From a virus, in the UHGV virus genome UHGV-1764584: 15,232 nt of DNA; one strand, written 5' to 3'. Positions 1 to 14,765 of this stretch are shown here, piece by piece. The notes under the pieces are model-generated. The model had not been told where the DNA came from. It searched no databases and saw nothing but the letters and a program-made list of their open reading frames with translations. Position numbers and translations under genes: made by a program. Position 1 is the first letter of the stretch. Every line of letters begins with the position of its first letter.

Positions 1-55
<55 letters not shown>

Positions 56-183
56 CTTTGTCGGTTTACGGATAACCAGGCAGTTATCGGCCCTGACATT
101 TTTTACAGGTCGGCGAGTCTGCGTCTTCCTTCCTTCGAGGATGGCCCTAACCATATCGTCATTAAAAACAACACCACGTTCTT

Positions 184-375
184 TCATTTAGAAGCCACCT
201 TGTTCAATTTCCGGCGACAAGACACGCAATCATCAGGACTCTCAAAAGTGTCTGGCTCACGGTAATCACCAAAATACATCCAACGGCCGCAAATGCTGGT
301 CACTTCACCTTCATTAAAATAATGATGTTTATTCGCCTTCATTGGCCTGACCCATCCGGCATTTTTCTTGCTCAC
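184..375 (-). CDS. Small Cys/His-containing hypothetical protein (about 63 aa), last gene of the wHTH operon
   Basis: A GTG start overlaps the TGA stop of the upstream gene (GTGA coupling) and is preceded by GGAGGAG. An alternative ATG start is at 342. No recognisable family. Confidence 0.3.
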   Translation of the reverse strand: MSKKNAGWVRPMKANKHHYFNEGEVTSICGRWMYFGDYREPDTFESPDDCVSCRRKLNKVASK

Positions 376-737
376 TTCAACTCCTCCCGACGACGTTCCT
401 GAAGCTCTAGCATTGCGGCTCGGAAATCCTGCCACCATTCTTCATCGGCTACTGGGGTGTTCCGCTCCAGCACCTTGTCCGCATCGGCGATCAGGTTTGC
501 CAGACTCTTGTCTGAAATCTTCGTTACCGGAGTCGTTGGTTGCTCAACCTGCCCGATAGGTTTTATCGTGCTCAAAAGGAGGCGACGGCGGGAAAGTGGT
601 GCCCCACAACGACGGCCATCTTCCTTGCGATATGTTTCTTTCGGACCAACACACCAGGTTGTCGGCGTCTCGCGCAACTTCACTTTTTTCTCACCATCAT
701 TGGTAATGATTATTCCGGTATGTGTTTTGATGCTCAT
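372..737 (-). CDS. Hypothetical protein (121 aa), translationally coupled to the upstream wHTH gene
   Basis: Intact ORF whose ATG overlaps the upstream stop (ATGA at 734-737). Charged C-terminal helical region; no family recognised. Confidence 0.45.
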   Translation of the reverse strand: MSIKTHTGIIITNDGEKKVKLRETPTTWCVGPKETYRKEDGRRCGAPLSRRRLLLSTIKPIGQVEQPTTPVTKISDKSLANLIADADKVLERNTPVADEEWWQDFRAAMLELQERRREELK

Positions 738-1015
738 GCCACAGCCCCTCTCAACGGCTTAACTTTGGCTAATAAGGTGTTAAACAACATGGAGTTAGGA
801 TTCATGCCAAATGGCAATTCCGGTTTAGCGGAGTAGTACAGGCAACCATTTATTTTCCTGGTTGTTATCTGTCCTTCGGCAACCATGCTTCTCAGTCTGC
901 AACGCATAGAGTTCTGCGACACACCAATGTGCTCCGCGATTACGTCCACTTTTGAACATGGGTGATCGGTCAGGAAATTAATCACATCTTGGGGGTTAAT
1001 AATTTTGCGTTTCAT
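734..1015 (-). CDS. Small winged-helix DNA-binding regulator (PapI/FaeA-like pattern)
   Basis: ORF trimmed to the Met of MKRKIINPQ, which has an AAGGA Shine-Dalgarno about 10 nt upstream. The stretch VINFLTDHP...VIAEHIGVS...RLRSMVAEGQI fits a wHTH regulator. An AT-rich box lies immediately upstream. Confidence 0.5.
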   Translation of the reverse strand: MKRKIINPQDVINFLTDHPCSKVDVIAEHIGVSQNSMRCRLRSMVAEGQITTRKINGCLYYSAKPELPFGMNPNSMLFNTLLAKVKPLRGAVA

Positions 1016-1030
1016 TGTCGAGGCATCCTT

Positions 1031-1060
1031 ATACATTTATATAAATATATAATTCTATAT
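1031..1060. repeat. AT-rich box (TTTATATAAATATATAATTCTATATA), member of a dispersed repeat family
   Basis: Shares the TATATAAAT and TATAATT(A/C)TATA cores with boxes at 2248-2280, 6001-6030, 6076-6103, 6781-6812 and 11722-11752. Sits in the promoter position of the 734-1015 operon. Confidence 0.5.
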
Positions 1061-1061
1061 A

Positions 1062-1081
1062 CGGCGGGAGACGTCCCGCCG
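1062..1081 (-). terminator. GC-rich hairpin downstream of the DUF3560-like gene (possible terminator)
   Basis: Perfect 8-bp stem CGGCGGGA/TCCCGCCG with a 4-nt loop, 12 nt past the stop at 1093. The following tract is AU-rich rather than a clean U-run. Confidence 0.35.
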
Positions 1082-1092
1082 TAGGCTTACTG

Positions 1093-2160
1093 TCAGGCTT
1101 TCAATAGCGATTCTTTTAGATATCGGGCATCAGCCAGGGCGTTTGGAGTAATCTTGCGAACCCATGCATTACGGGTTGGACTCCACTTAAAGGCGCGTGA
1201 TTTAAGCAGCGAACGAATGTTTGCCTCTGGTTTGCCAGGGAAATAAAACAGGATGCGGTTATCCTCTGGATCTATCTCCATAGAAAAGCCGTCGTATTCT
1301 TCGCGCTGTGCTCCTGTTACAGACTTGACCGATTCAAGCTCCTTAATACGGCTCTGTAGTCGTTTGATTTCGGCGTTATTGTTGCTCAGTGCGTATGAAG
1401 GGAATCCGATGCGCCCACAGAAATCTCCGGCCAGTAACTCTTTGGCTTCGCTTTCTGTAAACCTGAGATCGATTAATGCAGAAAGCTGCTGTAATTGGTC
1501 TTTTTTGTATTTGCGAATGGCCTTATTTGCGGCCTTCATTTTGACGTGTGACTTCATGCAGCCTTGCAGCTTACGAAGCAACTTAAATAGCGCATCAGGA
1601 TCATCAGACGAAATTCCATTACGACCAACACCTGCGGCTTTGCTCTCGTAGTGTGATGCTTTACTTTCGCATTCAACAAACGCTTTTCTTAATAACGCAT
1701 CAGCTTTAGACAAACGGCGGCGATGGCCTTTCGCGCTATAATGGTCAACTAAAATCGGCTGGCCTAACGGGATCACATCCAACAGGTCATGCGCTCGCTT
1801 ATGCGCTACCGCACCTTCTTTTCTGGCTTTTTCTGCACGAGCAATATATCGGGCAAGACGCGCGTTCTGGCGTTCCTGATAGGTGTTTACGTAATCATCT
1901 CCGCGCTGCTGCTGTTCAAGCCATGCTTTGCGCAGATCTTCTGTTACGTCCACCAGCTCCGCAGGGATACAACCAGTTTGGGCTTCATAAGAGTAACCAT
2001 CCTCATAGATGCGCCCATCGTCTTCAACAAAGAAAAAGGTTTCGTGCTCATCGCTTTTGACCATACGACCATTAACATGGCGTAATAGGTAGCCAGTATC
2101 AGTGCTTAACAGGCTGTTAGGGTTGTTGATCCAGTCAGAAATAATTTCTTGTTTATTCAT
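1093..2160 (-). CDS. 355-aa protein, DUF3560-like (family recalled from memory), function unknown
   Basis: Long intact ORF with GGAG 8 nt upstream of the ATG. C-terminal motif FYFPGKPEANIRSLLKSRAFKWSPTRNAWVR resembles DUF3560 proteins. Highly charged K/R/E-rich helical middle region. Confidence 0.65.
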   Translation of the reverse strand: MNKQEIISDWINNPNSLLSTDTGYLLRHVNGRMVKSDEHETFFFVEDDGRIYEDGYSYEAQTGCIPAELVDVTEDLRKAWLEQQQRGDDYVNTYQERQNARLARYIARAEKARKEGAVAHKRAHDLLDVIPLGQPILVDHYSAKGHRRRLSKADALLRKAFVECESKASHYESKAAGVGRNGISSDDPDALFKLLRKLQGCMKSHVKMKAANKAIRKYKKDQLQQLSALIDLRFTESEAKELLAGDFCGRIGFPSYALSNNNAEIKRLQSRIKELESVKSVTGAQREEYDGFSMEIDPEDNRILFYFPGKPEANIRSLLKSRAFKWSPTRNAWVRKITPNALADARYLKESLLKA

Positions 2161-2166
2161 CAGATT

Positions 2167-2280
2167 TCTCCGGTTTAACCAGGGCGGGTATCGCTCGGTT
2201 TCGGGTATAACCTTAGGAAATTTTTTCCCACCTGTAAAGCACTTTTTATATAAATCTATAATTATATATTTATAGATTTT
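2167..2280 (-). promoter_or_regulatory. Copy A of a duplicated promoter/5' leader module (about 110 bp), includes RBS and AT-rich box
   Basis: Near-identical to 11643-11752 (1-2 mismatches over roughly 100 bp). In gene orientation it contains TTTACA, a 17-bp spacer, TAAGGT, and the GGAG RBS. Lies directly downstream of the Q-like gene. Confidence 0.6.
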
Positions 2281-2329
2281 CGATGTTCCCGATGTCTACA
2301 CACCATCAAAATAGCTCAAAATGACACTT

Positions 2330-2707
2330 TTACTCTCTTCGCTTTTTCAAATAGTCGACAACATACGCCCTGGCTTTTGCCAGCTTCCGGCGATACTGTC
2401 TGAGACTAAGAGAAAGGGCGTGGGCTTTATCAATATGCGGTGCATTTATGTCGAGGCCCCGAATCTCCCACGCCCCGTATTCAATTCGGACAACCAGCGC
2501 CGCAGTCTCATCAACTACCGTGAGGGCCGTCACCGCTCCCTCGATACTGGTTTCCAGTGAGTCATTTGGTGCGCCGCCCCCTCCGGTAAACTGGCAGCGC
2601 GTAACCATCATCATTTCTAACATCGACGCGAAACCGCTACGGGCGTTGCAGCCATTGCGCACCCACAGCGCCCATAGCTCAAACAAGCTATCCAGATCGC
2701 GTCTCAC
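2330..2707 (-). CDS. Q-like antitermination protein (phage 82/21-type pattern), tentative
   Basis: 125 aa and last gene of the early operon. The N-terminal LFELWALWVRNG...SGF pattern resembles the VLERWGAWAANN... start of recalled lambdoid Q-type proteins. Family assignment unverified. Confidence 0.45.
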   Translation of the reverse strand: MRRDLDSLFELWALWVRNGCNARSGFASMLEMMMVTRCQFTGGGGAPNDSLETSIEGAVTALTVVDETAALVVRIEYGAWEIRGLDINAPHIDKAHALSLSLRQYRRKLAKARAYVVDYLKKRRE

Positions 2708-2710
2708 TGT

Positions 2711-3043
2711 TCAGATCTCCCGTATCGTGACGGGATAAAGCGCCTCTACCTGCTTTTTCTTCATGATGTAGACGTCTGTTCGCACACCTTTAGTGTCGAC
2801 ACAATCAATCGTCCCATCGTCATAAAACACCATGAAATCAAGTTTATAAACGACACCACCAGGCAGATGAAAAGGCACCTGCATAAGAAACGTCACAACG
2901 CGGCCAGCTTTTCTCAGTAGCTTCAGTTCGCAGTAGTAATCAGCCTCTTTTTTGCTATCAAAAGCGATATCATCGACAACAGTTTTTTTATTGCCGTATT
3001 TGCTTTTCCTGGTCGCTGGTTTGCGAAAGCCGGTATATCTCAT
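2711..3043 (-). CDS. DUF1064-family phage protein
   Basis: The N-terminus YGNKKTVVDDIAFDSKKEADYY and the motifs YKLDFMVFYDDG and ALYP match the DUF1064 pattern common in lambdoid nin regions. Confidence 0.65.
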   Translation of the reverse strand: MRYTGFRKPATRKSKYGNKKTVVDDIAFDSKKEADYYCELKLLRKAGRVVTFLMQVPFHLPGGVVYKLDFMVFYDDGTIDCVDTKGVRTDVYIMKKKQVEALYPVTIREI

Positions 3044-3444
3044 TTGGTATCCCCTGGTACTTCACCAAGACTAAGATCAAACCCAATTTCGTCTTTAACT
3101 GACTGCGGCAACAGCTCCCACGTCTGCGCACACAAAAATTCATCGGTGCCATAACGCTCAACAAAGCGAGCACAATTACTCAGGGGAGGGTGACGAACGG
3201 CAATATGCGGAGGCACGCGCCCACCACCAGGCACAACACCGCGATGATGTGGTGCGCACAACCCAAAGCTATGGAAGTGGCAATTCTCATCAACGCTGCC
3301 GTAATCAGGATCGTGATGTAGCTCCGTCCACAGCTCTGGATTCTCAATTTCACGGCCATCAATAATGCAAGCTATGCAACCCACGTGAGTGAGCACCGCT
3401 TGTATATAAAGTTTCTCTTTCTTCGTTGGTGTACGTCCGTTCAT
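3040..3444 (-). CDS. Ref-family recombination enhancement nuclease (HNH)
   Basis: MNGRTPTKKEK...GCIACII...ELHHD...CHFH...LCAPHHRG...RHP...FVERYGTDEFL matches the recalled Ref-family pattern. ATGA overlap with the downstream gene. Confidence 0.6.
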   Translation of the reverse strand: MNGRTPTKKEKLYIQAVLTHVGCIACIIDGREIENPELWTELHHDPDYGSVDENCHFHSFGLCAPHHRGVVPGGGRVPPHIAVRHPPLSNCARFVERYGTDEFLCAQTWELLPQSVKDEIGFDLSLGEVPGDTK

Positions 3445-3677
3445 CAGCGCCCCTTACCATTGATAAAGAGGTTGAACTCGTTGATTAACTGGACATACAT
3501 GCTTCTGGCCGCGTAGTTCTTTGCCAGCTCTTTACGGGATGAGATCCCGCAAAACTCACGCAGAATCACAGAGGCCTCAGAACTGTTTGAAACGTTCTTC
3601 CCTGTTTTACTGGTCAGAAAGTGCCAGAATTGGGGATTCTGGCAATGCATCGCAGCACCGCGAACATAACTACTCAT
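3444..3677 (-). CDS. Hypothetical phage early-operon protein (77 aa)
   Basis: Intact ORF tightly coupled to its neighbours (overlaps at both ends). No family recognised. Confidence 0.45.
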   Translation of the reverse strand: MSSYVRGAAMHCQNPQFWHFLTSKTGKNVSNSSEASVILREFCGISSRKELAKNYAARSMYVQLINEFNLFINGKGR

Positions 3678-4189
3678 TGATGGCCCCCGTCATTTCTGGT
3701 GCTTTTCACCGTGCGGCTTCTTAAAAACCTGCCATCACGAACAACAGACACTTCTCGTTTACCCAACCTCATTTCACGGCGGTAACATTCAGAAAATGCC
3801 TCGTCCGGCATCATATAAATGCGACGCTTCGCCTCCGTATCCAGAAGGGAACGGCTTGGGGTTACATATAAAAACGACTCATCAATAGGGACCAAACCAC
3901 GAGCAAGAATTGCTGGCAGAATGCCAGGAAGAACGCAGAAAACAGCTCCACGATGCAGCAACATCTGGTACTCCATGACCTCCGTTATCCCCGTGACTAC
4001 TGTTACGGTGTCACGTCTGTTACGGCTGGCAACCAGTCGCTGCACACGTCCAATTTTCTGATCTACAGATAGATGTTTGCTATCGTTATCAATATGATCG
4101 ATAACAAATCCTTTAATCGTTTGATCAAGGTAGTGCACCACCTTCGATTGAATCTGGTGATTATCACCAAAGAAGGCCAGAATCATCAT
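3674..4189 (-). CDS. Hypothetical phage early-operon protein (171 aa)
   Basis: Intact ORF with ATGA overlaps to both neighbours. Possibly a nin-region DUF but not recognised with confidence. Confidence 0.45.
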   Translation of the reverse strand: MMILAFFGDNHQIQSKVVHYLDQTIKGFVIDHIDNDSKHLSVDQKIGRVQRLVASRNRRDTVTVVTGITEVMEYQMLLHRGAVFCVLPGILPAILARGLVPIDESFLYVTPSRSLLDTEAKRRIYMMPDEAFSECYRREMRLGKREVSVVRDGRFLRSRTVKSTRNDGGHQ

Positions 4190-4680
4190 TCCTCAAGCCT
4201 CCCAAGTGCTGAACGCCGGGCGTTGCTAATCTCCTTATGAATCAGCTCGATATCGCTGGAATCTTTATTCTTAAACTCCAGCATGGCAATCGCATCACGA
4301 ACCTCTGAAACGGTTACGTGTGAGTGTTTCCAGCGAGCAATGAATCGCGGACCGCGTAGATTGCAACGCTCCGCAGGCATCCCCAGCTCAGAGAAAACCG
4401 CTTTCAGCCTTGATAAGCAGTTAACAGGGAGATTCCCTTTGATCTTGTTCTGCCGAACCGATGTGCCATCGCTACGCTGGCGCTGACGTTCGGCAAAATC
4501 TGCCGCCCATTGCTGGACGTTAATCCGGCCTTCCGAATACGCCACCAGCAGCGTCAGGTTATCCGCACGAGGGAATCTCTCGAAGCGATACCAGGCACCA
4601 ATCAGTGATGACGTAAAGCCAAACTTTCTGGCAACACCAATTTGGCCTCCATTTTCGTCAACCCACTCCTGAAAGGTCAT
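4186..4680 (-). CDS. Cro/CII-like HTH DNA-binding protein with C-terminal extension, first gene of the early operon
   Basis: N-terminal GGQIGVARKFGFTSSLIGAWYRFERFPRADNLTLLVAYSEG resembles the lambda CII-type HTH. GGAG lies 9 nt upstream of the ATG. Divergent from the cI-like gene across the operator region. Confidence 0.5.
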   Translation of the reverse strand: MTFQEWVDENGGQIGVARKFGFTSSLIGAWYRFERFPRADNLTLLVAYSEGRINVQQWAADFAERQRQRSDGTSVRQNKIKGNLPVNCLSRLKAVFSELGMPAERCNLRGPRFIARWKHSHVTVSEVRDAIAMLEFKNKDSSDIELIHKEISNARRSALGRLEE

Positions 4681-4698
4681 TTAACGAACTCCAGTTAA

Positions 4699-4826
4699 AC
4701 CACAATATGTGGTATTAAAACCACATATTGTGAGTTTTTCAATGGGCGAAACAAAAAATAACCTTCTATTTGTGGTCCACCTCTCGTCTTACCATGTGAA
4801 AACCACTAAATGTGGTAATGTATAAA
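4699..4826. promoter_or_regulatory. Divergent promoter/operator region between the cro-like and cI-like genes
   Basis: Operator-like sites: O1 4699-4713 (ACCACA-ATA-TGTGGT, perfect), O2 4720-4734 (ACCACA-TAT-TGTGAG), O4 4802-4816 (ACCACT-AAA-TGTGGT). Leftward promoter TTGAAA (rc of 4737-4742), 17 bp, TTTAAT (rc of 4714-4719), with O2 in the spacer. Rightward candidate -10 TATAAA at 4821-4826. Confidence 0.55.
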
Positions 4827-4853
4827 TAACCCACCATTCACGATTGATGAGAC

Positions 4854-5510
4854 ATGAAAAGCAACGACGAGAACATCAAGAAAGAAATAGGTCTGCGCAT
4901 TCAGACTCTACGGAAACAATCCGGCATGACTGCCGGAGATCTCCAGCAAGTCACTGGAATAGGCTTAAGCACCTTGCAGAACTATGAGGCCGGATTAAGA
5001 CAACCATCTATACCTGCCATCAAGAAAATCGCGCACGCCCTGAAAGCATCAGCGCCTTATATCGCGTGCTTAACAGATAACCCGTTCCCACCCCAGAATA
5101 CTAACGCTCCTGTTATTCCTGGGCTTGTAGCTATAAAAAATGACATAGCATCGCACGCCGGAGAAAAGCCAGTGCTGGCGATAGAACAGGAGATTCTACG
5201 AAGCAAGAACATCAACCCATCGTCTCTGTCAGTTCTCCAGAGCAACGATGAGTTAATGTCACCAACAATATCCCCTGGCTCCCAAGTCCTGATTAATACA
5301 GACGATACAGAGATTCATGAGGGGATCTATGCCCTTGAAGACAGAAATGGCCTGGTTGTTTTGAGGCACTGTAGAGTCATACCGGGTGACAATGCTGTTA
5401 TGCTGTCAACCGAAAGGGATGCTGAAATGAACACTAAGCATCTGAATAACGAGGAATTTAAGCGTTATAAAGTTCTTGGCCGCGTAGTTAGTGTTGTCAA
5501 CTGGTTATGA
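4854..5510 (+). CDS. cI-like repressor (XRE-type HTH plus LexA/S24-like C-terminal domain)
   Basis: N-terminal HTH (IGLRIQTLRKQSGMTAGDLQQVTGIGLSTLQNYEAG). C-terminal domain shows the S24-like pattern (GIYALEDRNGLVVLR...VLGRVVSV). Confidence 0.8.
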   Translation: MKSNDENIKKEIGLRIQTLRKQSGMTAGDLQQVTGIGLSTLQNYEAGLRQPSIPAIKKIAHALKASAPYIACLTDNPFPPQNTNAPVIPGLVAIKNDIASHAGEKPVLAIEQEILRSKNINPSSLSVLQSNDELMSPTISPGSQVLINTDDTEIHEGIYALEDRNGLVVLRHCRVIPGDNAVMLSTERDAEMNTKHLNNEEFKRYKVLGRVVSVVNWL

Positions 5511-5517
5511 TACACAG

Positions 5518-5533
5518 CACGGCGAAAGCCGTG
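5518..5533 (+). terminator. Short hairpin after the cI-like gene (weak terminator/attenuator candidate)
   Basis: CACGGC-GAAA-GCCGTG, a 6-bp stem with a GAAA loop, followed by CATTTCTACGCTC. Confidence 0.3.
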
Positions 5534-5551
5534 CATTTCTACGCTCAAAAA

Positions 5552-5591
5552 AACCACATTTTGTGGTTTTGACAACATGTAAAAGTATAAA
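5552..5591 (+). promoter_or_regulatory. Operator O5 plus promoter elements upstream of gene 5603-5977
   Basis: O5 at 5552-5568 is a perfect 7-bp-arm palindrome AACCACA-TTT-TGTGGTT. TTGACA at 5569-5574 and TATAAA at 5586-5591 follow. Exact promoter geometry unresolved. Confidence 0.5.
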
Positions 5592-5602
5592 AGAGGCTAC
5601 GC

Positions 5603-5977
5603 ATGGAATTACATACAGCCAATAAAAACGAAACTCTGATCACTGCTGGAATCGAAATCCAAGCGTTGAACATAGCGATTGAGTGTATGTTATGCCAACT
5701 CATTGATAATGAGAAAGATATCGACTGGATAGAATCTATCCTTCATCTGGCATCAGAACAAAAAGTCTGCCTCAAAACGGCCTTACAATACGATGTGCCA
5801 GCGGTATCGAAGCTGTGCCAGTCATTGATGGCATATAACAGGGCTATTATTTCTGTATGCCTCATGATTCTCGATGAAAACCCCCCTCTTAGCGACCGCT
5901 CAGAAGCTGCTCTAACCCTCTCACGTAAACAGCGACAGCTAGCAAATCAACTGATATCAACGATAGCTGACCTCTGA
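5603..5977 (+). CDS. Hypothetical 124-aa protein downstream of the cI-like gene
   Basis: Intact ORF with AAGAGG 6 nt upstream of the ATG, followed by a hairpin at 5981-6000. Predicted mostly helical; no family recognised. Confidence 0.5.
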   Translation: MELHTANKNETLITAGIEIQALNIAIECMLCQLIDNEKDIDWIESILHLASEQKVCLKTALQYDVPAVSKLCQSLMAYNRAIISVCLMILDENPPLSDRSEAALTLSRKQRQLANQLISTIADL

Positions 5978-5980
5978 CTG

Positions 5981-6000
5981 CAAGCGGGCTAACGCCCGCT
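5981..6000 (+). terminator. Hairpin terminator candidate after gene 5603-5977
   Basis: AAGCGGGC-TAAC-GCCCGCTT, an 8-bp stem 4 nt past the stop, followed by an AU-rich tract. Confidence 0.45.
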
Positions 6001-6103
6001 TATATGATTATAGATTTATATAATTATATAAAACGCTTTTCATCCGCCAAAAAGTTGGTTATGCTTACCTCGTTCTATAAATATAGATTTATAGAATTAT
6101 ATA
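6001..6103. repeat. Two AT-rich boxes upstream of parA (candidate par operator/centromere-like repeats)
   Basis: TATAGATTTATA at 6008-6019 and 6082-6093, each followed by (T)AATTATATAA. The same core recurs at 6798-6809. Confidence 0.5.
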
Positions 6104-6127
6104 ACCAAACACATGGAGTCTCGACAA

Positions 6128-6781
6128 ATGACTATCTCTGTAGGTATTTTCAACGGAAAAGGCGGCGTAACCAAATCAACAATTGCCCGTGCTTTAGCAG
6201 TTGCTTATGCAAAGGCTGGCTGGAATGTATGCCTGATCGATATGGATGTGCTTAACGGAACGGTAACGCGTTGGGTACAACGCAGAATGGCCAACAATAT
6301 CGAACCAGCAATCGCGGCGCAGCCGTGCGGCACACCATCACAAGTCCAGAAAATCATCGAATCAGAAGTATACGACCTGGTTATCGTCGATGGCGGTGCC
6401 TACGCATCTGAATCAGTACCGAAGCTCTCTGAATTTCTGGATATGGTTATTTTGCCAACCAGATTCTCTACCGATGACCTGGAAACCACCGTTAACACAG
6501 CTCACGGCATCGTTAAAAAGGGTGTACCAATCAAGAAAATTTGCATGGTGTTTTCCGGCGCGGCTGAAAACGAAGCTGACTATATTGAAGCCCAAGAGTA
6601 CCTGGCTAATACGCCATACTTTGTTGTCGATAAGTACATTCCCCACAAGCCAGCTCTGAGCAAAGCTCAGGATAAGGGCTTAAGCCTCATTGAGTGCTCA
6701 TACGTTGCGCCACGCAAAAAGGCAGACGACGTTATTCAGGGGATTATCAACCAGCTTGAGGCTCTGACTACTGCCGCGTAA
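6128..6781 (+). CDS. parA: ParA-family partition ATPase (small ParF-type)
   Basis: Deviant Walker A GKGGVTKST, Walker A' LIDMD, and VIVDGGAYAS hydrophobic motif. Start chosen at ATG 6128 (GGAG at 6115-6118, 9-nt spacing); the ORF track's 6113 start is 5 codons longer. Confidence 0.8.
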   Translation: MTISVGIFNGKGGVTKSTIARALAVAYAKAGWNVCLIDMDVLNGTVTRWVQRRMANNIEPAIAAQPCGTPSQVQKIIESEVYDLVIVDGGAYASESVPKLSEFLDMVILPTRFSTDDLETTVNTAHGIVKKGVPIKKICMVFSGAAENEADYIEAQEYLANTPYFVVDKYIPHKPALSKAQDKGLSLIECSYVAPRKKADDVIQGIINQLEALTTAA

Positions 6782-6812
6782 TATATAATTATAGTTTTAT
6801 AGATTTATATAA
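6781..6812. repeat. AT-rich box between parA and the parG-like gene
   Basis: ATATATAATTATAGTTTTATAGATTTATATAA, carrying the same TATAGATTTATATAA core as 6008-6022. Confidence 0.5.
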
Positions 6813-6824
6813 GAGGGGATACAC

Positions 6825-7073
6825 ATGGCCGCACCATCAAAACCACCAAAGAAGAACAGCAAAGGCGTACCGCCATCGATCGAACAACCGCAGGTTTTCG
6901 ACCCGACTGAAACGCCAACCAGAACCAAATCAGGTGGGGCACAAATGGCGTTTAACGTCGACCCTGAATTTAAACGCGAGTACAAAACGTTCGCCAGCTC
7001 AATGGATATGTCATTGAAAGAAGTGCTGACAAAATCTTTTGAGTTACTCAAGGCTCAATACAACCAGAAGTAA
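6825..7073 (+). CDS. ParG-like ribbon-helix-helix partition/centromere-binding protein (82 aa)
   Basis: Directly downstream of parA with an AAGAGGGG RBS. Basic, Pro-rich, likely disordered N-terminal tail, then MAFNVDPEFKREYKTFASSMDMSLKEVLTKSFELLKAQ, a strand-helix-helix pattern comparable to TP228 ParG. Confidence 0.55.
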   Translation: MAAPSKPPKKNSKGVPPSIEQPQVFDPTETPTRTKSGGAQMAFNVDPEFKREYKTFASSMDMSLKEVLTKSFELLKAQYNQK

Positions 7074-7135
7074 GAGAAGGTGACGGCCTCCAGCGCCAAC
7101 TGTTGGCCGTCGCGACACAACAAGGGGAATTTGTT

Positions 7136-7285
7136 ATGTCCGAGCAACAATATACACGGTTACTGAAAACTCGTCTAACCGACCTCAAACGGCTGCAAGC
7201 TGGTCGCTTATTTGCCCTGCTATCCACCAGGCCAGAATGGGTACGTGAAGCAGTTCTGAAAGGCTTAATGCGCTCCAGCGTTTAA
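7136..7285 (+). CDS. Small hypothetical ORF (49 aa)
   Basis: ATG with a GGGGAA RBS, basic helical peptide. No homology recognised; could be non-coding. Confidence 0.25.
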   Translation: MSEQQYTRLLKTRLTDLKRLQAGRLFALLSTRPEWVREAVLKGLMRSSV

Positions 7286-7294
7286 ATTCAACCA

Positions 7295-7318
7295 TAAAAA
7301 AGGCCCCCGAAGGGGCCT
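7295..7318 (-). terminator. Rho-independent terminator oriented for minus-strand transcription
   Basis: Stem AGGCCCC/GGGGCCT (7301-7307 with 7312-7318) and loop CGAA. The A-run at 7295-7300 gives a U-run after the hairpin on the minus-strand RNA. Confidence 0.55.
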
Positions 7319-7323
7319 AATCG

Positions 7324-7446
7324 CTACTTGCTGCTAATGTTTATCGTCACATTCAGAGCGTTATCAGTAATCTTCCAACCCTCCCCATGTGGCGTAAACA
7401 AAGCTCCAGTAACAACGATAAAAATACACATACAGTATTTTTTCAT
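7324..7446 (-). CDS. Candidate 40-aa hydrophobic peptide (MKKYCMCIFIVVTGALFTPHGEGWKITDNALNVTINISSK)
   Basis: ATG at 7446 with AAGGG 7 nt upstream; the SD sits in a GGCC...GGCC hairpin. N-terminal hydrophobic segment. Ends just before the terminator at 7295-7318. The ORF track's 60-aa version begins at a non-ATG codon upstream. Confidence 0.35.
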   Translation of the reverse strand: MKKYCMCIFIVVTGALFTPHGEGWKITDNALNVTINISSK

Positions 7447-7677
7447 TGTATGGCCCTTACAGGCCGTTTCACGACATCCCCACCGACGAAAACAACGCGA
7501 GAGCAAGCACGGCTGCTTGTGCTTGCATGTACGGCAACAGGAAATCCTCCCCTAAAGTCGGTGCCCGGGTGCGAATCGGCGGGAAGGTCCACAGGTATTT
7601 TACGATTATTTTAAGATTAGTAATAGGAAAGAAATTAAACGAAAAAAACAGTTTATTTTCACAAAATCAGTAACCTA

Positions 7678-7733
7678 CCCACAATCTGTGAGTTTGCTGA
7701 CACAACAAGAACCACAATTTTTTGATGTATAAT
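7678..7733 (+). promoter_or_regulatory. Operator-like sites and -10 element upstream of the candidate sRNA / antirepressor operon
   Basis: O6 at 7678-7692 (CCCACA-ATC-TGTGAG, close to O2) and half-site O7 at 7711-7716. TATAAT at 7728-7733 is preceded directly by TG. Confidence 0.45.
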
Positions 7734-7738
7734 AGTGG

Positions 7739-7870
7739 ACTATTATTACCTTTTGAGTAAAATCAATTTGCTGCTTGTGCTTGCGTGGTTGTTTATACAA
7801 CAACGTAATGCTGAAAGGACCGCGAATCCGATCAGCACGAAAGAACCGTCCTCAATAGGGCGGTTTTTTT
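7739..7870 (+). ncRNA. Candidate small RNA / terminated leader (about 130 nt)
   Basis: Runs from the TATAAT promoter to a terminator at 7844-7870 (stem AACCGUCC/GGGCGGUU with one G-U pair, loop UCAAUA, then U7). Positions 7770-7787 are complementary to the minus-strand RNA at 7512-7529. Internal hairpin GTTGTT-TATAC-AACAAC at 7788-7804. Confidence 0.35.
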
Positions 7871-8017
7871 GTTTCTGCCTACCAATAAACCCACGCTATG
7901 TGGTTGTCTCTGTTAAAATCCCGCCGTATTGACATGAATGCGCCATTGGTGGACACTTTCCGAGCCGTAGCAAAATCTACGGTCGGGATTGGAACCCCGT
8001 AGACACAATGGCGCATA

Positions 8018-8040
8018 CCGCGTTAGCGGTTTTTTTATGC
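8018..8040 (+). terminator. Second short terminator-like hairpin in the antirepressor leader
   Basis: ACCGC-GTTA-GCGGT followed by T7. A GATTGGAACC 10-mer is repeated at 7988-7997 and 8150-8159. Confidence 0.3.
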
Positions 8041-8202
8041 GTAAAGCACTGCTACACCCAAATTATGGTGGGGCGTGCGGGGGAGTCGTAAGACTCGCCG
8101 GTTCGTCATTGTGTCCGGTAGTTCCAACCCTGCACGTCTCACCACCCAATGATTGGAACCTGACGGTGGTGAGTATCCTTAACCTTTAAGGGAATCATCA
8201 CA

Positions 8203-8394
8203 ATGACAAACCTACCCCATGACTATTACGTCAACCTCGTAAAGATCCTTCTCAAGAAAGCCTCATACGCCGATAAATTACGCCTGGCTGAAATCATCGA
8301 GCGCGAAGCTATGCGCATCGCCAGCAACGATAACGCTGTTTCTGACGCAAAAATCTCCCTCGTAACCAAAGTTGTTATGGGAGGTGCAAAATGA
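8203..8394 (+). CDS. Small protein (63 aa) translationally coupled to the antirepressor gene
   Basis: AAGGGAA RBS; its stop overlaps the antirepressor ATG (ATGA at 8391). Occupies the position that icd has in P1 immI. No sequence family recognised. Confidence 0.5.
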   Translation: MTNLPHDYYVNLVKILLKKASYADKLRLAEIIEREAMRIASNDNAVSDAKISLVTKVVMGGAK

Positions 8395-9542
8395 AAACGC
8401 TTCCGACCGTTAACACCCTACAGCCTATCCTGCATAATCAGATTCCAGTAATCACAACTGAGCTACTCGCCCGCCTTTATGGAACAGAAGCAATCCGTAT
8501 ACAGCAAAATCACCATGAAAATAAAACTCGGTTCATTGAGGGGAAGCACTTCTTTAAAGCTGTTGGTGATGAACTCAAAAATTTGCGACTAGTTTTAAAC
8601 GAGTCACAAAATGAGGTGCAAATTTCCCCCAAAACTCGCTCTCTCATCCTCTGGACAGAACGCGGGGCTGCACGTCACGCCAAAATGCTTGAAACTAACC
8701 AAGCGTGGGATGTGTTCGAACGGCTGGAAGACTGCTATTTCAACCAGAACGCGCAAACGGCCGCGACCGTAACCGTCTCACCAAACAATGCTCGTGAGGT
8801 TGTCGATACGCTCAACGCCAAACCGATGTTTTACATTAAAGTGTGCAACAACGAGCCACTCACAACCTCAGCCGATGTTGCCCAGGCATTCAGCACCACA
8901 AACAATTCCATCGTTATGGCCATCGATGCGTTACGCATTCCTCGCACAGCTGCGGCGCGTCATTTCTTTAAAGAGCAACGACCGTTGGAAGGAAGCGACC
9001 GCGAAATAACAATCTATCGCATGACAAAAGACGGATTTACCTTGCTCATGGAAAGTATCGACGGTCCAGGCGTGAAGGATATCAAGCTGGCCTACATTGA
9101 AGCCTTTAACGCTATCAGCAGCGTGTTAAAAACACAGTACGAGCGCGATCTGGCTAAACGACTGTACCAGGAAAAAACGATTATCCGCGCGGCAACAGAG
9201 CATAATCGGCTATTAACGGAACCGAACTACAGGAAGGAACTAATCAAGGAGTTTGACAAGGCAACAGGGAAAACCAAAGCGGCGCTAAGTCTGCCAGCAA
9301 TGACTCAGGAAAATGTGATATCAGCCTTACTTCTTGATCTGCTCAGAAACGCCAGAGCACTTATCAGCTTTGACGAAAACCTGAATCCTCAGCTCAAGCT
9401 ACTACCACCGACAGGCAAAGTAGTCGACCAGGCTGATCACAACAGCATACTCAGCGTACTGGATGCAAACCTGCCAGCCAGGACACTACAGGATCTGATA
9501 AAAACATGTGCTGATAAGCTGGCACAGAAAAGCAGACCATAA
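8391..9542 (+). CDS. Phage antirepressor (N-terminal ORF6N domain plus Rha/AntA-like domain)
   Basis: N-terminal IPVITTELLARLYGTEAIRIQQNHHENKTRFIEGKHFFK...LILWTERGAARHAKMLETNQAWDVFERLEDCYF is a classic ORF6N pattern. Middle PLTTSADVAQAFSTTNNSIVMAIDAL is Rha/AntA-like. Confidence 0.8.
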   Translation: MKTLPTVNTLQPILHNQIPVITTELLARLYGTEAIRIQQNHHENKTRFIEGKHFFKAVGDELKNLRLVLNESQNEVQISPKTRSLILWTERGAARHAKMLETNQAWDVFERLEDCYFNQNAQTAATVTVSPNNAREVVDTLNAKPMFYIKVCNNEPLTTSADVAQAFSTTNNSIVMAIDALRIPRTAAARHFFKEQRPLEGSDREITIYRMTKDGFTLLMESIDGPGVKDIKLAYIEAFNAISSVLKTQYERDLAKRLYQEKTIIRAATEHNRLLTEPNYRKELIKEFDKATGKTKAALSLPAMTQENVISALLLDLLRNARALISFDENLNPQLKLLPPTGKVVDQADHNSILSVLDANLPARTLQDLIKTCADKLAQKSRP

Positions 9543-9546
9543 CTAC

Positions 9547-9579
9547 AAGGGGCTACGGCCCCTTACTCTTTTCTCTCTT
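9547..9579 (+). terminator. Rho-independent terminator after the antirepressor gene
   Basis: Stem AAGGGGC/GCCCCTT (9547-9553 with 9558-9564), loop TACG, followed by the U-rich ACTCTTTTCTCTCTT. Confidence 0.55.
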
Positions 9580-10279
9580 ATCAACACCAGAGACTTTCTG
9601 AAAATCCTTTCGAATAGCGTCAGCGTCACGCGCCAAGCCCATACTCGAACGTGTCGCCATATGACGAAAATGATCAACTGCCGGAAACAAAGAAATAATG
9701 GACCCAATAGCTTGCAGCAAACTCGCTTTTCTACGCATCATAATTCCACCATAACCGATAACCACCCTTCAGACACAACCCCCCCTCCCCCCATACAGGG
9801 TGCCCTTTACCGGAGTTCCGGCCCCTTCTCAAAAGCATCAAAAAAAGCTCGAGATCGAGTACCGGAACTCATGCCACCAGATAGCTCCACATCGTTTCCA
9901 ATGCTTCGCCGCCGTGTGCGCCCTGTGGCCCACAATCATGCCATTGGTCGTCTGATATACCTTCTTCTGCTCATAGAGCACAGGCGAGTTGTCGCACTCC
10001 TGCCTTTCTCAGACTCGACTTAGTTTAGATCGCTGTTCCTGGCTTGCGTCAGCACACTTTCCCCTTGTACGCATACCCGCGCGCCACTTCGCCCAAAAAC
10101 ACCGAACCCAACGAAGTGGCAAAGACAACGACGCGAGCGTGAGTCTGAAATGGGCACCAGTAAAAAAGGGGTTGCAGGCGCAAAAAGATTTGATTATCTT
10201 TAGACGCAAGAAAGCCGCCCCAATCAAGAGGTGTCTTTTTAAATCCAGCCTACCAAGCAAGATTTAAATTTCAGACTGA

Positions 10280-10310
10280 AAACCGCCCGGCAAGGCGGTT
10301 TTTGTCTTTC
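10280..10310. terminator. Terminator hairpin, usable in both directions
   Basis: 8-bp stem AAACCGCC/GGCGGTTT with loop CGGCAA. A T-run follows on the plus strand and an A-run precedes it. Lies about 50 nt downstream of the minus-strand XRE gene stop. Confidence 0.5.
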
Positions 10311-10351
10311 TGGCGCTTACATTACACCACCATAAAACGATCCGTAAAGGA

Positions 10352-10624
10352 TCATTTGATCCCTTGTTCCAATTCTGCCGACACTTTAACCTTTTCCCAT
10401 ACAAGGGTTTGCAGCCTTAACAGAATCGCATCTTTATCAAGGTGTGAAAGATCCTTAACCATATCGTCAAACGACAGAACGCGAATGGCCATCTCAATGA
10501 CCCTCGGCGGCTCCCCCTTCTCATATCGCTTATATGTAGCCAACGATATCCCAAACTCTTCGGCTGCTCGCTCCTGCGTCCAGTTCATCCCACGACGCCA
10601 TAATTTCAATTCGTAACCCGTCAT
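10352..10624 (-). CDS. XRE-family HTH transcriptional regulator (90 aa)
   Basis: MTGYELKLWRRGMNWTQERAAEEFGISLATYKRYEKGE is a canonical XRE HTH. Divergent from gene 10726-11151. Confidence 0.7.
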   Translation of the reverse strand: MTGYELKLWRRGMNWTQERAAEEFGISLATYKRYEKGEPPRVIEMAIRVLSFDDMVKDLSHLDKDAILLRLQTLVWEKVKVSAELEQGIK

Positions 10625-10725
10625 TACATCCTCTACCTTTCCCTAGATATTCAATAAATTAGACATAGCCACTCACGACAAAATAAGATGTATTAACAAT
10701 CCAATCTTTAGGCTTTAGGTAAAAA

Positions 10726-11151
10726 ATGAGTTCATCTGCTTTTGTCACCGTGGTCACTGGTGTAAGTGTTTTTGTTCTAGGCCAACTCATCGTCAAAGGA
10801 GCTATTGAGCCTTACATTTCATTCAGGGAACAACTAGGGAAAATATCCAATCTGTTATTATGTAACCAAGCAAAAATAGTGAATCCTGGCTCGAACTTAA
10901 AGCCAGAAATCATTCATGATCTAAAAGATTCCGCAGCACAGTTAATGGCGAAATATTCCACTTTACCTTTCTATATCAAAAAGTTACATATCGGCTTTCG
11001 TCTTGTTCCATCAGCCACCGAGATTCTTGGGGCAGCTCAAAATTTGAACTATATAGCGTCAATACATGAAGGTAAGACTGGGGAGAATCCATCTAAGCAT
11101 CTCGAAGAGATTGGCCATATGCTCAAAATACCAACTACCTATTCAAGCTAA
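10726..11151 (+). CDS. Hypothetical membrane-anchored protein (141 aa) in an AT-rich segment
   Basis: AGGT RBS; N-terminal hydrophobic helix (AFVTVVTGVSVFVLGQLIV) followed by a soluble domain. Visibly lower GC than its flanks. No family recognised. Confidence 0.5.
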   Translation: MSSSAFVTVVTGVSVFVLGQLIVKGAIEPYISFREQLGKISNLLLCNQAKIVNPGSNLKPEIIHDLKDSAAQLMAKYSTLPFYIKKLHIGFRLVPSATEILGAAQNLNYIASIHEGKTGENPSKHLEEIGHMLKIPTTYSS

Positions 11152-11219
11152 CCCAATGTAAGTTATCGGCTTGCCCCACAATAAGTTATCTATCTTCAAA
11201 CGCCCCCTATATTAACACT

Positions 11220-11246
11220 CGCAAAGTGTCAAAATGACACTTTGCG
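11220..11246. promoter_or_regulatory. Perfect 12-bp-arm palindrome (CGCAAAGTGTCA-AAA-TGACACTTTGCG) between convergent genes
   Basis: Seen directly. Fifteen nucleotides of it (TCAAAATGACACTTT) recur exactly at 2316-2330 at the 3' end of the Q-like gene. Could be a terminator hairpin or a dimer operator. Confidence 0.45.
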
Positions 11247-11254
11247 CATTGTGT

Positions 11255-11635
11255 TTACTTAACGAGGAATAAAAATGGTTTATTGTTCGGCGGTGTAATC
11301 GGGGCTGGCTCGCTTTTGCTCATGCGATCAGTGTACCAGGCCAACTCCTTGTCAAAGTAAGCCTGATTAAAATAGGCCATGAATGTAGTTTCAAATCCAT
11401 AACGACCGCTAATACGCAGCATCTGATTGCCGTTCTCTGTTTCCAGATATACCTGGGCACGTTCCTGATTCTCCTTCAGCCAGGTTAAAGCCTCATCGCA
11501 TGAGGACACACGATACTCATCATCGTAGCAGTCATCGATGCGGCTTGAGGAAGAACGGCAAATCACGCCAACAGAACCAGCCAGGATAGTTTGAATTTTA
11601 AGGAAAGCGTTTTTGCGGATTTTAATCATGCTCAT
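11255..11635 (-). CDS. Hypothetical 126-aa protein with signal-peptide-like N-terminus
   Basis: Intact ORF with GGAG 8 nt upstream. N-terminal basic then hydrophobic stretch (KIRKNAFLKIQTILAGSVGVIC), three Cys in the following 25 residues. Driven by copy B of the duplicated leader module. Confidence 0.55.
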   Translation of the reverse strand: MSMIKIRKNAFLKIQTILAGSVGVICRSSSSRIDDCYDDEYRVSSCDEALTWLKENQERAQVYLETENGNQMLRISGRYGFETTFMAYFNQAYFDKELAWYTDRMSKSEPAPITPPNNKPFLFLVK

Positions 11636-11642
11636 CGGGTTA

Positions 11643-11752
11643 TCTCCGGTTTAACCAGGGCGGGTATCGCTCGGTTTCGGGTATAACCTTAGGAATTTTT
11701 TTCCCACCTGTAAAGCACTTTTTATATAAATATATAATTATATAATTCTATG
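11643..11752 (-). promoter_or_regulatory. Copy B of the duplicated promoter/5' leader module
   Basis: Near-identical to 2167-2280, including RBS, TTTACA-17 bp-TAAGGT and the AT-rich box. Confidence 0.6.
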
Positions 11753-11783
11753 AGCACAAAAAAGCCCCTTTGCAACAGGGGCT
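11753..11783 (-). terminator. Rho-independent terminator after the antitoxin gene
   Basis: Stem AAGCCCCT/AGGGGCTT (11761-11768 with 11776-11783), loop TTGCAAC. The A6 run at 11755-11760 gives a U-run on the minus-strand RNA. Confidence 0.6.
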
Positions 11784-11798
11784 TATCATTCGTTCTGA

Positions 11799-12098
11799 TC
11801 AGATGTTAAACGCTATTCGTTTTCCTGTGGGAAGCTCAACATCCAGGCTTAATTTGCCTCCCATAGCTTCAACGTAACGCTTTAATGTCGCCAGCTTTAA
11901 ATCATTTCCGCGCTGCTCCAGCTTTGTTACTGCTGGCTGGCTTATACCCATCGCCTCAGCAACCTGTTTTTGTGATAACTGGAGTTCTTCACGCATCATC
12001 TGCAAGCCGACCTCAAGAATCATCTCATCTGCCATTTCTTTAATTCGCGCCTGGCTTTCCGGTGAACGGCTGGCAATCGCCTCATCTAATGTTCTCAT
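11799..12098 (-). CDS. HigA-like HTH antitoxin (addiction-module antidote, XRE family)
   Basis: 99 aa with HTH (LSQKQVAEAMGISQPAVTKLEQ). Overlaps the upstream toxin gene by 1 nt; toxin-first order is typical of HigBA. Confidence 0.6.
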   Translation of the reverse strand: MRTLDEAIASRSPESQARIKEMADEMILEVGLQMMREELQLSQKQVAEAMGISQPAVTKLEQRGNDLKLATLKRYVEAMGGKLSLDVELPTGKRIAFNI

Positions 12099-12451: not shown

Positions 12452-12454
12452 TCC

Positions 12455-13622: not shown

Positions 13623-13639
13623 TGCAAGGGCGAACATAT

Positions 13640-13900: not shown

Positions 13901-13906
13901 GGTGGG

Positions 13907-14755: not shown

Positions 14756-14765
14756 ATGTTCGCTC

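Follow-up and report, generated by a model that had tools for sequence, protein, structure and literature searches.

Sequence Homology between a Repeated Promoter-Leader Cassette of Enterobacterial Phage-Plasmids and the klcA and kleA Promoter Regions of IncP-1 Plasmids

INTRODUCTION

In IncP-1 plasmids, the klcA and kleA promoters of the kil-kor circuit are near-identical repeats that stand before unrelated genes. KorA and KorC strongly repress the klcA and kle operons of RP4, whose induction in fresh transconjugants is 120–220-fold and 20–50-fold, respectively; klcA encodes an anti-restriction protein (PMC7314908). Derepressed kle/klc genes harm Escherichia coli (PMC11997246). The present study concerns a block of about 110 bp that occurs twice, before two unrelated genes, in a stretch of viral DNA of 15,232 nucleotides (nt), UHGV virus genome UHGV-1764584; the whole stretch is referred to as the window. 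An earlier note made from the sequence had taken the block at 2167–2280 and its copy at 11643–11752 for a promoter/leader module that might depend on a Q-type antiterminator encoded by a neighboring gene. The comparisons described here point instead to the klcA and kleA promoter regions.

Partition proteins can double as global regulators, as do KorB of RK2, omega of pSM19035, ParG of TP228, and SopB, which has dispersed sites in the phage-plasmid N15. Type Ib partition systems of the ParG pattern encode, after parA, a protein with a disordered basic tail and a strand-helix-helix domain. Anti-CRISPR-associated (Aca) proteins control several operons and have RNA motifs in 5′-untranslated regions (5′UTRs), as in Aca1 and Aca2, and a ribbon-helix-helix Aca (Aca14) exists (PMC13551039). 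The helix-turn-helix (HTH) domain of AcrIF24 has been shown experimentally to bind a 17-bp inverted repeat that fills the spacer of its own promoter, TTGCAT-N17-TATAGT (PMC9638941).

RESULTS

Structure and Distribution of the Cassette

Positions 2167–2274 and 11643–11750 of the window were returned by the repeat finder as a 108-nt direct repeat with 96% ungapped identity. When the two copies (cassettes A and B) were aligned with MAFFT, about four mismatches and one indel near the start codon were found, and the similarity reached both start codons. The copies are near-identical, as the earlier note had said, but they differ at more than the one or two positions that it counted. The elements that it named, TTTACA-17-TAAGGT, an AT-rich box, and GGAG, are all present in both copies, on the minus strand.

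In cassette A, the σ70-type promoter (2210–2238) comprises the −35 element TTTACA (2233–2238) and the −10 element TAAGGT (2210–2215), separated by a 17-nt spacer. The AT-rich box is an array of four 8-bp units, ATCTATAA ATATATAA TTATAGAT TTATATAA (2246–2277), that ends 7 nt 5′ of the −35 element. The spacer holds the putative operator of a KorC-like protein, an imperfect palindrome of 17 bp, TGGGAAAAAATTTCCTA (2214–2230), that takes in the first two bases of the −10 element. From the sequence, transcription would start near 2202–2204, and near 11678–11680 in cassette B. The 5′UTR contains the hairpin AACCG-A-GCG-AUACC-CGC-CC-UGGUU (2177–2200), predicted by RNAfold and supported by covariation, followed by AAA-CCGGAGA and the start codon (2158–2176), with GGAG at 2168–2171 and the ATG of a DUF3560 gene at 2158–2160. 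Cassette B has the same arrangement: the four-unit array (11722–11753), the promoter (11686–11714) with TTTACA at 11709–11714, a 17-nt spacer, TAAGGT at 11686–11691 and the palindrome at 11690–11706, and the leader (11633–11676) with the hairpin at 11653–11676, GGAG at 11644–11647, and the ATG of a gene for a 126-residue protein at 11633–11635. In some E. coli isolates the −10 element of the cassette reads TATGGT. The array of cassette B lies directly after the terminator of a toxin-antitoxin operon of the higBA type (11799–12451, minus strand), which encodes a Gp49/RelE-family toxin of 117 residues and an HTH antitoxin of 99 residues; the terminator (11762–11784) is strong and bidirectional, and cassette B begins immediately beyond it.

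The genes behind the two cassettes are unrelated, as had been proposed: cassette A precedes a DUF3560 protein of 355 residues and cassette B the 126-residue protein, which has no Pfam match. Over the first 300 nt the two genes are ~52% identical, as compared with 94–97% for the cassette. The label "secreted-type" given to the 126-residue protein found support in no search.

The best plasmid match of the window, CP099184.1 (locus L001), was taken whole as the reference replicon. A search of the whole replicon, suggested in the earlier note as a check, revealed a third copy (C), which lies outside the window, upstream of a gene for an 89-residue protein that follows an MT-A70 methylase gene. A pattern for the 53-nt core, with up to 3 mismatches allowed, occurs 3 times in the complete replicon; the expectation from shuffles is 0.00. 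With three cassettes per replicon in the E. coli element and 2–4 per locus in its relatives, the idea that the module marks a co-regulated set of accessory, non-structural genes through a shared promoter and 5′UTR was borne out. The block was found in 65 PLSDB plasmids and in 74 of 5426 complete E. coli genomes, including that of the reference strain ATCC 25922, at a median of three places per genome; 214 of the 217 places in this genome survey are on plasmids. Among the matches listed, no copy of the block has an annotation under it.

A conjugative plasmid carrying cfr (NZ_CP037908.1, locus L003) contains at 4001–4047 an E. coli-type cassette (array, TTTACA, and part of the spacer) cut by IS26, together with a ParA/ParG-like pair with TATA-type arrays. 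This copy was set aside as independent evidence for the cassette: it is identical to the E. coli phage-plasmid type, may have come from recombination, and is therefore ambiguous.

Homology with the IncP-1 klcA and kleA Promoter Regions

The klcA and kleA promoters can be aligned with the cassettes element by element from −35 through the start codon. In the IncP-1β plasmid pCNB, the DNA 5′ of klcA and kleA contains, in order, a KorB operator, a KorA operator, AAAGTGC-TTGACA, TAGGGCATTTTGCCCTA, (TA)ATAT, the hairpin GGCCGGGCAYWTCGCCCAGGTC, and ACCGGAGAAAGTCCGATG. The elements that align are the −35 context AAAGTGCTT(G/T)AC, the TAGG-N9-CCTA palindrome, the −10 element, the hairpin, and ACCGGAGA..GATG; the cassette palindrome is aligned with the OC-type palindrome TAGGGCATTTTGCCCTA of kleAp, the IncP-1 leaders fit the hairpin structure of the cassettes, and ACCGGAGA...GATG is conserved from the E. 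coli copies to IncP-1. An nhmmer profile built from phage-plasmid cassettes only found klcAp with E = 2.4e-13 and kleAp with E = 2.4e-10, and also the promoter of a Klebsiella plasmid with KorC (E = 4e-9), whose palindrome is TAGGACAAAATGTCCTA. By these sequence comparisons the cassette is shown to be homologous to the promoter-leader regions of klcA and kleA.

The homology begins at −35. Matches to the operators of KorA (GTTTAGCTAAAC) and KorB (TTTAGCSGCTAAA) were no more frequent than chance in the whole replicon, and the position that these operators hold in IncP-1 is occupied in the cassettes by the AT-rich array. The proteins encoded behind the cassettes have no similarity to KlcA, KlcB, KleA, or KleE.

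The Spacer Palindrome and a KorC Homolog

The 17-bp palindrome of the spacer, with its last two bases within the −10 element, reads TGGGAAAAAATTTCCTA in the E. coli cassettes, TAGGAAAATATTTCCTA in those of Salmonella, and TAGGACTAAAAGTCCTA in most other lineages; the core TAGG-N9-CCTA is kept in all members of the cassette family. In four complete replicons, the sole copy of the palindrome outside the cassettes is in the promoter of an HTH gene beside repA that encodes 95 residues. In the window this gene adjoins repA at 12976–13263 (minus strand). Its own promoter, TTGCCA-17-TACCAT (13290–13318, minus strand), contains the perfect palindrome TAGGAAAAGATTTCCTA at 13294–13310 and has neither the AT-rich array nor the leader hairpin. 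Such a promoter, with the palindrome, belongs to the gene in five lineages, including Salmonella, two Serratia replicons, and locus L027. At five IMG/VR loci (L025, L026, and L028–L030), the gene lies inside the string of genes driven by a cassette. Every locus that bears a cassette also has this homolog.

The 95-residue protein has no Pfam match. In hhalign it was aligned with KorC of pCNB with a probability of 99.6% (E = 3e-24), and in tblastn the two are 50% identical over 80 residues. One member of its family is named KorC in UniRef, and tblastn matches it to genes annotated as korC in many plasmids. On this sequence evidence the protein is a KorC homolog, and it is a putative repressor. 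In the Protein Data Bank (PDB) it matches the HTH (Aca) domain of AcrIF24, with E = 1.4e-5 from the single sequence and 2e-6 from the profile, and its match to Aca3 is weak (E = 0.016). The geometry of the operator in the cassettes is the same as that of the AcrIF24 operator (PMC9638941).

A CI-like HTH/S24 gene (4854–5510) is flanked by palindromes of the CACAATATGTGG type at 4701–4732, in a divergent region, and at 5550–5575, just past the gene. These are probably the operators of the CI-like repressor; they are unrelated to the spacer palindrome, and this repressor was rejected as its binder.

The Leader Hairpin

The leader forms a bulged hairpin that begins 3–4 nt after the predicted start of transcription. 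Its outer stem has 4–5 bp, its inner stem 3 bp, and its loop 5 nt; AAA-CCGGAGA follows, and then the ATG, ~45 nt after that predicted start. The 74-nt leader of cassette B folds with a z-score of −2.55. In an alignment of 28 distinct leaders, 96.4% of the cells are paired as compared with 88.1% in column shuffles (none of 500 shuffles reached the observed value), and slid partners pair in 13–40%. Compensatory changes are present in four of the seven pairs (AACC/GGUU, GGCC/GGCC, and GACC/GGUC; GC, AU, and GU at the inner pair), with G-U intermediates on the sense strand, and RNAalifold agrees. The covariation support drawn from these sequences is good but not overwhelming, and few independent lineages contribute to it.

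The hairpin has no U-tract and is therefore not a terminator; probably it stabilizes the mRNA or serves as a site of translational control, as described for Aca1 and Aca2 (PMC13551039), and it could protect the 5′ end. The leader had no match in Rfam at E values up to 10. Two other roles were considered and rejected. The hairpin resembles the DNA palindrome, as an RNA mimic would, in one lineage (the L025 type) but not in E. coli or Serratia. The C4, isrK, and ryfA matches of the window contain no stretch of 7 nt or more complementary to either leader, which excluded them as antisense regulators; no other antisense match of 11 nt or more was found in the window.

AT-rich Arrays and the Partition Locus

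The AT-rich box comprises four tandem 8-bp units (TTATAKAW; 32 bp in total), of which TTATATAA is itself palindromic. Six such arrays (repeat family D1) were found in the window: those of cassettes A and B, a pair 5′ of parA, a single array that separates parA from the next gene, and another at 1029–1060. The complete replicon has eight array sites, on both sides of parA as well as elsewhere, three of them embedded in cassettes. The parA promoter region (6000–6104, plus strand) consists of array 1 (6000–6031), TTTTCA-17-TATGCT, and array 2 (6073–6104), followed by a ribosome-binding site; as in the cassettes, the upstream array abuts the −35 element. The gene itself (6128–6781, plus strand) encodes a small Walker-type partition ATPase with Pfam matches to CbiA/ParA/MipZ. 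A third array (6781–6812, plus strand) follows the stop codon of parA and precedes the ribosome-binding site of the next gene, and similar arrays are found in the conjugative plasmid L003 and in loci L006–L010. The array at 1029–1060 (minus strand) is located between the terminator hairpin of the DUF3560 gene and the ribosome-binding site of a gene (734–1015) for a winged-helix-like protein of 93 residues (phrog_1687, MarR-like).

The gene directly 3′ of parA in all relatives (6825–7073, plus strand) encodes an 82-residue, ParG-like protein that is the putative binder of the arrays. It has no Pfam match. In its AlphaFold2 (AF2) model, residues 1–40 form a disordered basic tail and helices 47–59 and 62–80 belong to a strand-helix-helix C-terminal domain. 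A profile of the protein gave a weak match to the ribbon-helix-helix protein SvtR (2kel; E = 0.0096); the alignment behind the structure prediction is shallow, since the homolog search gave only close relatives. A Foldseek search with the model returned nothing and is uninformative, since the protein was modeled as a monomer and its disordered tail is long.

Relatives with a ParA 29–55% identical all have two arrays 5′ of parA, some have another 5′ of the ParG-like gene, and the period is 8 bp. The units are specific to the lineage: TTTAAATA / ATCTTTAA in Serratia, GATATAAA / ATATATTT in a group of IMG/VR loci, AAAGAATT in L027, CTATAAAG in L031, and TTAACGCA in L032. In six lineages with cassettes, the unit type of the cassette array is that of the par locus of the same replicon, and the two change in parallel. 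From this parallel change, the array of a cassette would be cognate to a factor encoded at the par locus of the replicon, and the sequences suggest that this factor is most simply the ParG-like protein.

Loci L006–L010, on contigs of Pectobacterium, Shimwellia, Erwinia, and Pantoea, have ParA/ParG-like genes and no KorC-type cassettes, yet two or three additional TATA-type arrays lie no more than 2 kb from their par genes, so that dispersed arrays seem typical of this ParA/ParG family in general. A scan of genome contigs with ParA yielded only ParA/ParG loci without cassettes. A second type of shared leader, in which an array abuts GGAG/GGAT-N1-2-CTCGACAA(A)TG, was found at 6116–6130 and 1013–1028 (minus strand) of the window and at 27714–27730 of the Serratia locus L005. 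This leader stands before parA in each of the eight phage-plasmid lineages examined, before the gene of the 93-residue winged-helix-like protein, and before a Lar-family restriction-alleviation gene of Serratia, and CTCGACAA is conserved between its Shine-Dalgarno site and the ATG. The eighth array of the reference replicon (L001, 13280–13523, outside the window) is ~150 nt 5′ of a tRNA-like sequence with the anticodon CAU, ahead of the MT-A70 methyltransferase gene.

Genes behind the Cassettes

The gene behind cassette A (1093–2160, minus strand) encodes the DUF3560 protein (Pfam E = 7.7e-31; phrog_6744), which had no informative match among PDB sequences. That behind cassette B (11255–11635, minus strand) encodes the 126-residue protein (phrog_8090), without a match in Pfam, NCBIfam, or the PDB; relatives of 96–98 residues are found behind cassettes of other lineages. 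The cargo among the relatives of the replicon includes DUF3560 proteins, families of 126/98, 89/97, 103, and 80/86 residues, DUF1391 proteins, and several singletons.

Three cassette positions are common to the E. coli and Salmonella replicons. The three copies are 94–97% identical to one another in E. coli and 98–99% in Salmonella. Between the two replicons the cassettes are 85–88% identical, orthologous copies being no closer than non-orthologous ones, and the first 300 nt of the orthologous cargo genes are 71–74% identical. Since both replicons share the three positions and yet the copies are alike within each, the copies must have undergone concerted evolution, homogenized within the replicon by gene conversion. 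Two IMG/VR loci have junctions that indicate recombination at the cassette: L041 (position 4470) is a hybrid in which an A-type 3′ end, as judged from the spacing between the Shine-Dalgarno site and the ATG, is joined to C-type cargo, and in L048 (position 1869) the gene for the 89-residue protein is gone and the cassette is fused to a match of the next gene.

The Replicon and the Window

Positions 56–15178 of the window align at 98–99% identity with circular E. coli plasmids of ~48–49 kb, and three isolated Yersinia myophages also match the window, at 98% identity. CP099184.1 encodes head, tail, and lysis genes as well as an IncFII-type RepA, ParA, a RelE/HTH toxin-antitoxin pair, and an antirepressor of the Rha/ORF6N type. 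Because phage head, tail, and lysis genes are combined with RepA, ParA, and the others in one replicon, the source is an E. coli phage-plasmid of ~49 kb. The family consists of Enterobacterales phage-plasmids with an IncFII-type RepA, ParA with the ParG-like protein, and a P1-like immunity region with C4 and an antirepressor. Both cassettes of the window, their cargo genes, and the KorC-like gene are on the minus strand. Literature searches on this phage family, on KorC in phage-plasmids, and on DUF3560 found nothing relevant.

The ends of the window (1–55 and 15179–15232) do not align with the best plasmid match, and bases 1–56 are identical to short stretches in several E. coli P2-like prophage records; this could reflect an invertible or recombined junction near a Hin-like recombinase or an artifact of the window. 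Rfam matches at the gathering score were obtained for ryfA (7296–7592, minus strand), isrK (7964–8036, plus strand), and C4 antisense RNA (8061–8149, plus strand), directly 5′ of a 63-residue open reading frame (ORF) and the ORF6N/Rha antirepressor gene (8391–9542). This layout resembles the P1 immI immunity region, in which the antirepressor is controlled by C4.

DISCUSSION

The block most likely marks a set of accessory genes under the control of repressors. Taken together, the analyses make it probable that it is a portable promoter-operator-leader cassette of the KorC type, held off in phage-plasmids by KorC-like and ParG-like repressors. A strong σ70 promoter would be kept silent in the established plasmid state by two repressors encoded on the replicon: (i) the KorC homolog (12976–13263) would bind the 17-bp palindrome of the spacer and regulate its own gene through the same palindrome, and (ii) the ParG-like partition protein would bind the four-unit array that abuts the −35 element. 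When the DNA enters a cell that is free of repressors, a burst of cargo expression would follow and then be shut off, as measured for klcA and kle in RP4. Gene conversion keeps the three copies of the cassette alike while the cargo varies. Repression by the two proteins, the burst on entry, and an anti-defense or establishment role of the cargo are what we infer from these comparisons.

The closest described system is the kil-kor circuit of the RK2/RP4/R751-type plasmids, with its klcA, kleA, and kleC promoters and the KorC operator OC. The two have in common a homologous repressor, a homologous cassette from −35 to the ATG, near-identical copies before unrelated genes in one replicon, small cargo proteins, and a second repressor site that abuts the −35 element, the second repressor being a partition DNA-binding protein or its partner (here putatively). 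They differ in that the host here is a phage-plasmid and that of kil-kor a conjugative plasmid, in that the KorA and KorB operators give way to 8-bp-unit arrays belonging to a ParA/ParG-like system of type Ib, and in that the KorC-like gene has its own separate promoter beside repA. With the regulation read as above, a kil-kor-type regulon would have been transplanted into phage-plasmids, with the sites of a type Ib partition protein in place of the KorA/KorB operators. As with KorB, omega, ParG of TP228, and SopB of N15, sites for a centromere-binding protein would be scattered at promoters outside partition in addition to the par operon; here, unlike in those systems, the sites are arrays of four direct 8-bp units, and three of the eight are inside a KorC-type cassette.

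Several points weigh against this explanation. The left half-site (TGGGA) of the palindrome in the E. coli cassettes is imperfect, and their −10 element, TAAGGT, is weak. All of the regulatory steps of the cassette are deduced from sequence. The assignment of the 82-residue protein to the ribbon-helix-helix class rests on the secondary structure of the AF2 model and one weak profile match. Another small DNA-binding protein, such as the 93-residue winged-helix-like protein or a 124-residue protein encoded before parA, could bind the arrays, and an array upstream of −35 could activate rather than repress. The cargo is not homologous to KlcA, KleA, or KleE, and searches of Pfam, NCBIfam, PHROGs, PDB sequences, and cluster names for its function gave only DUF3560, DUF1391, and "hypothetical."

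The locus may possibly, though we would not expect it, be an anti-CRISPR or anti-defense locus of the Aca type, in which the KorC-like HTH protein is the Aca, the cargo is anti-defense, and the hairpin is an RNA operator for that protein, which would control both transcription and translation, as Aca1 and Aca2 do. Such a locus would be a special case of the explanation given above and compatible with it. The sole significant PDB relatives of the 95-residue protein are Aca-type HTH domains of AcrIF24 (E = 2e-6; Aca3 is weak at E = 0.016), the inverted repeat fills the promoter spacer as it does for AcrIF24, and the control of several operons, the RNA motifs of the 5′UTR, and the ribbon-helix-helix Aca (PMC13551039) have parallels in the cassette. 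The cargo is small, variable, and unannotated, a Lar-family restriction-alleviation gene stands behind an array in Serratia (L005), and KlcA of IncP-1 is an anti-restriction protein. Against it, no cargo protein matches a known anti-CRISPR (Acr) or anti-defense protein in Pfam, NCBIfam, PDB sequences, or source names, and the hairpin is not consistently like the DNA palindrome across lineages. The likeness to Aca-controlled acr promoters thus consists of a related HTH protein, a 17-bp inverted repeat in the spacer, one regulator for several operons, a structured 5′UTR beside the ribosome-binding site, and perhaps a ribbon-helix-helix co-regulator; unlike those promoters, the cassettes have no known acr gene downstream, and binding of RNA by the KorC-like protein is pure speculation. 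A wider proposal, which we likewise think unlikely, makes the KorC-type cassette an "entry-burst" module widely shared by plasmids and phage-plasmids. KorC would then function as an Aca-type regulator, the hairpin would add translational control as an RNA operator, shut-off would be coupled by the partition protein to successful establishment of the plasmid, and the variable small cargo proteins, among them those of the DUF3560, 126/98-, 103-, and 86-residue families, would be undescribed proteins of anti-defense or host takeover.

Somewhat less plausible still is the possibility that not the ParG-like protein but another one, such as the 93-residue winged-helix-like or the 124-residue protein, binds the arrays, or that these are only an UP element or a target of H-NS, the link with partition being coincidental. 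An array lies directly 5′ of the gene of the 93-residue protein, which could mean autoregulation; the four complete replicons examined (E. coli, Salmonella, and two Serratia) all keep the gene of the 124-residue protein in synteny with parA; and AT-rich DNA upstream of −35 can act as an UP element. However, in unrelated replicons (the conjugative plasmid and loci of Pectobacterium, Erwinia, and Pantoea), the ParA/ParG pairs have similar arrays both 5′ of parA and between parA and parG and, in the stretches read, no gene like that of the 124-residue protein immediately before parA. The units of the distant relatives are not simply AT-rich, that of L032 being TTAACGCA, and tandem 8-bp units fit cooperative binding by a ribbon-helix-helix protein, as in ParG of TP228.

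Dependence on Q, as the earlier note envisaged it, now seems very improbable. At the cassette, the 125-residue protein in question (2330–2707, minus strand) would join RNA polymerase, perhaps by way of the spacer element, and render transcription of the accessory genes resistant to terminators. Copy A does lie directly behind this ORF, beginning ~50 nt past its stop codon, and the ORF is a neighbor of cassette A rather than a demonstrated part of it. The designation as Q-like is possible but unproven. In a Foldseek search with its AF2 model (mean predicted local distance difference test score, pLDDT, of 77), the top matches were entries of the Q21 antiterminator, followed by sigma region 4, and one member of its cluster is named "Antitermination protein Q" in UniRef; the scores for Q21 are weak (probability 0.77–0.94, template modeling (TM) score 0.44–0.54, E = 0.3–0.8, all above 0.1), no Pfam match was found, and the match to PA0613 in NCBIfam is weak. 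An operon containing Ref/DUF1064 has a cassette downstream of it in E. coli, Salmonella, and both Serratia replicons, and in E. coli and Salmonella this operon holds the Q-like gene; λ Q binds between −35 and −10, where the cassettes also have a sequence element. To this extent the cassette resembles a lambdoid PR′ promoter with its qut site. It differs in that no terminator-like site is present between promoter and ATG (2158–2280 or 11633–11752), as the earlier note itself had observed, the hairpin being without a U-tract; in that no conserved −10-like pause element (TANNNT) was found in the early transcribed region of the 28 aligned leaders; and in that the genes driven (for the DUF3560, 126-residue, and 89-residue proteins) are accessory rather than lytic or structural. 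Copies B and C lie elsewhere in the replicon, at a distance from the Q-like gene, homologous cassettes are present in IncP-1 plasmids, where no Q-like gene is annotated in the ~10-kb region examined, and the spacer palindrome recurs in the promoter of the KorC homolog. A leader followed by a strong terminator is found instead just before the holin gene. This non-coding leader of ~200 nt (L001, 15149–15370 on the complement of CP099184.1), ~2 kb past window position 1, ends in a strong intrinsic terminator, GAAGCCCTGCC..GGCGGGGCTT with T9 and an 11-bp stem, ~20 nt before the holin start codon. Judged from its sequence, it is a candidate for a Q-type late transcription unit and a better place for a Q target than the cassette.

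That the block is a mobile or selfish repeat, similar to a miniature inverted-repeat transposable element (MITE), or an assembly artifact without a regulatory role is scarcely credible, since, multi-copy and near-identical within the replicon though it is, it has a constant orientation, ends exactly at the start codon, lacks terminal inverted repeats and target duplications, keeps three positions between E. coli and Salmonella, recurs in 74 of 5426 complete E. coli genomes at a median of three places, and has a promoter, operator, and Shine-Dalgarno site homologous to the regions upstream of IncP-1 klcA and kleA, whose operons are reported to be repressed by KorA and KorC (PMC7314908).

A portable KorC-type cassette under the control of KorC-like and ParG-like repressors would tie the classical and poorly understood kil-kor circuit of IncP-1 to common phage-plasmids of E. 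coli, Salmonella, Serratia, and other enterobacteria. The cassette, for which no record checked has an annotation, lends itself as a marker for small accessory genes. These are probably expressed only on entry into a new cell, as expected of anti-defense or establishment functions. The hypotheses that a ParG-type partition protein took over the role of KorA and KorB, and that a hairpin conserved from IncP-1 plasmids to phage-plasmids has a function, can both be tested.

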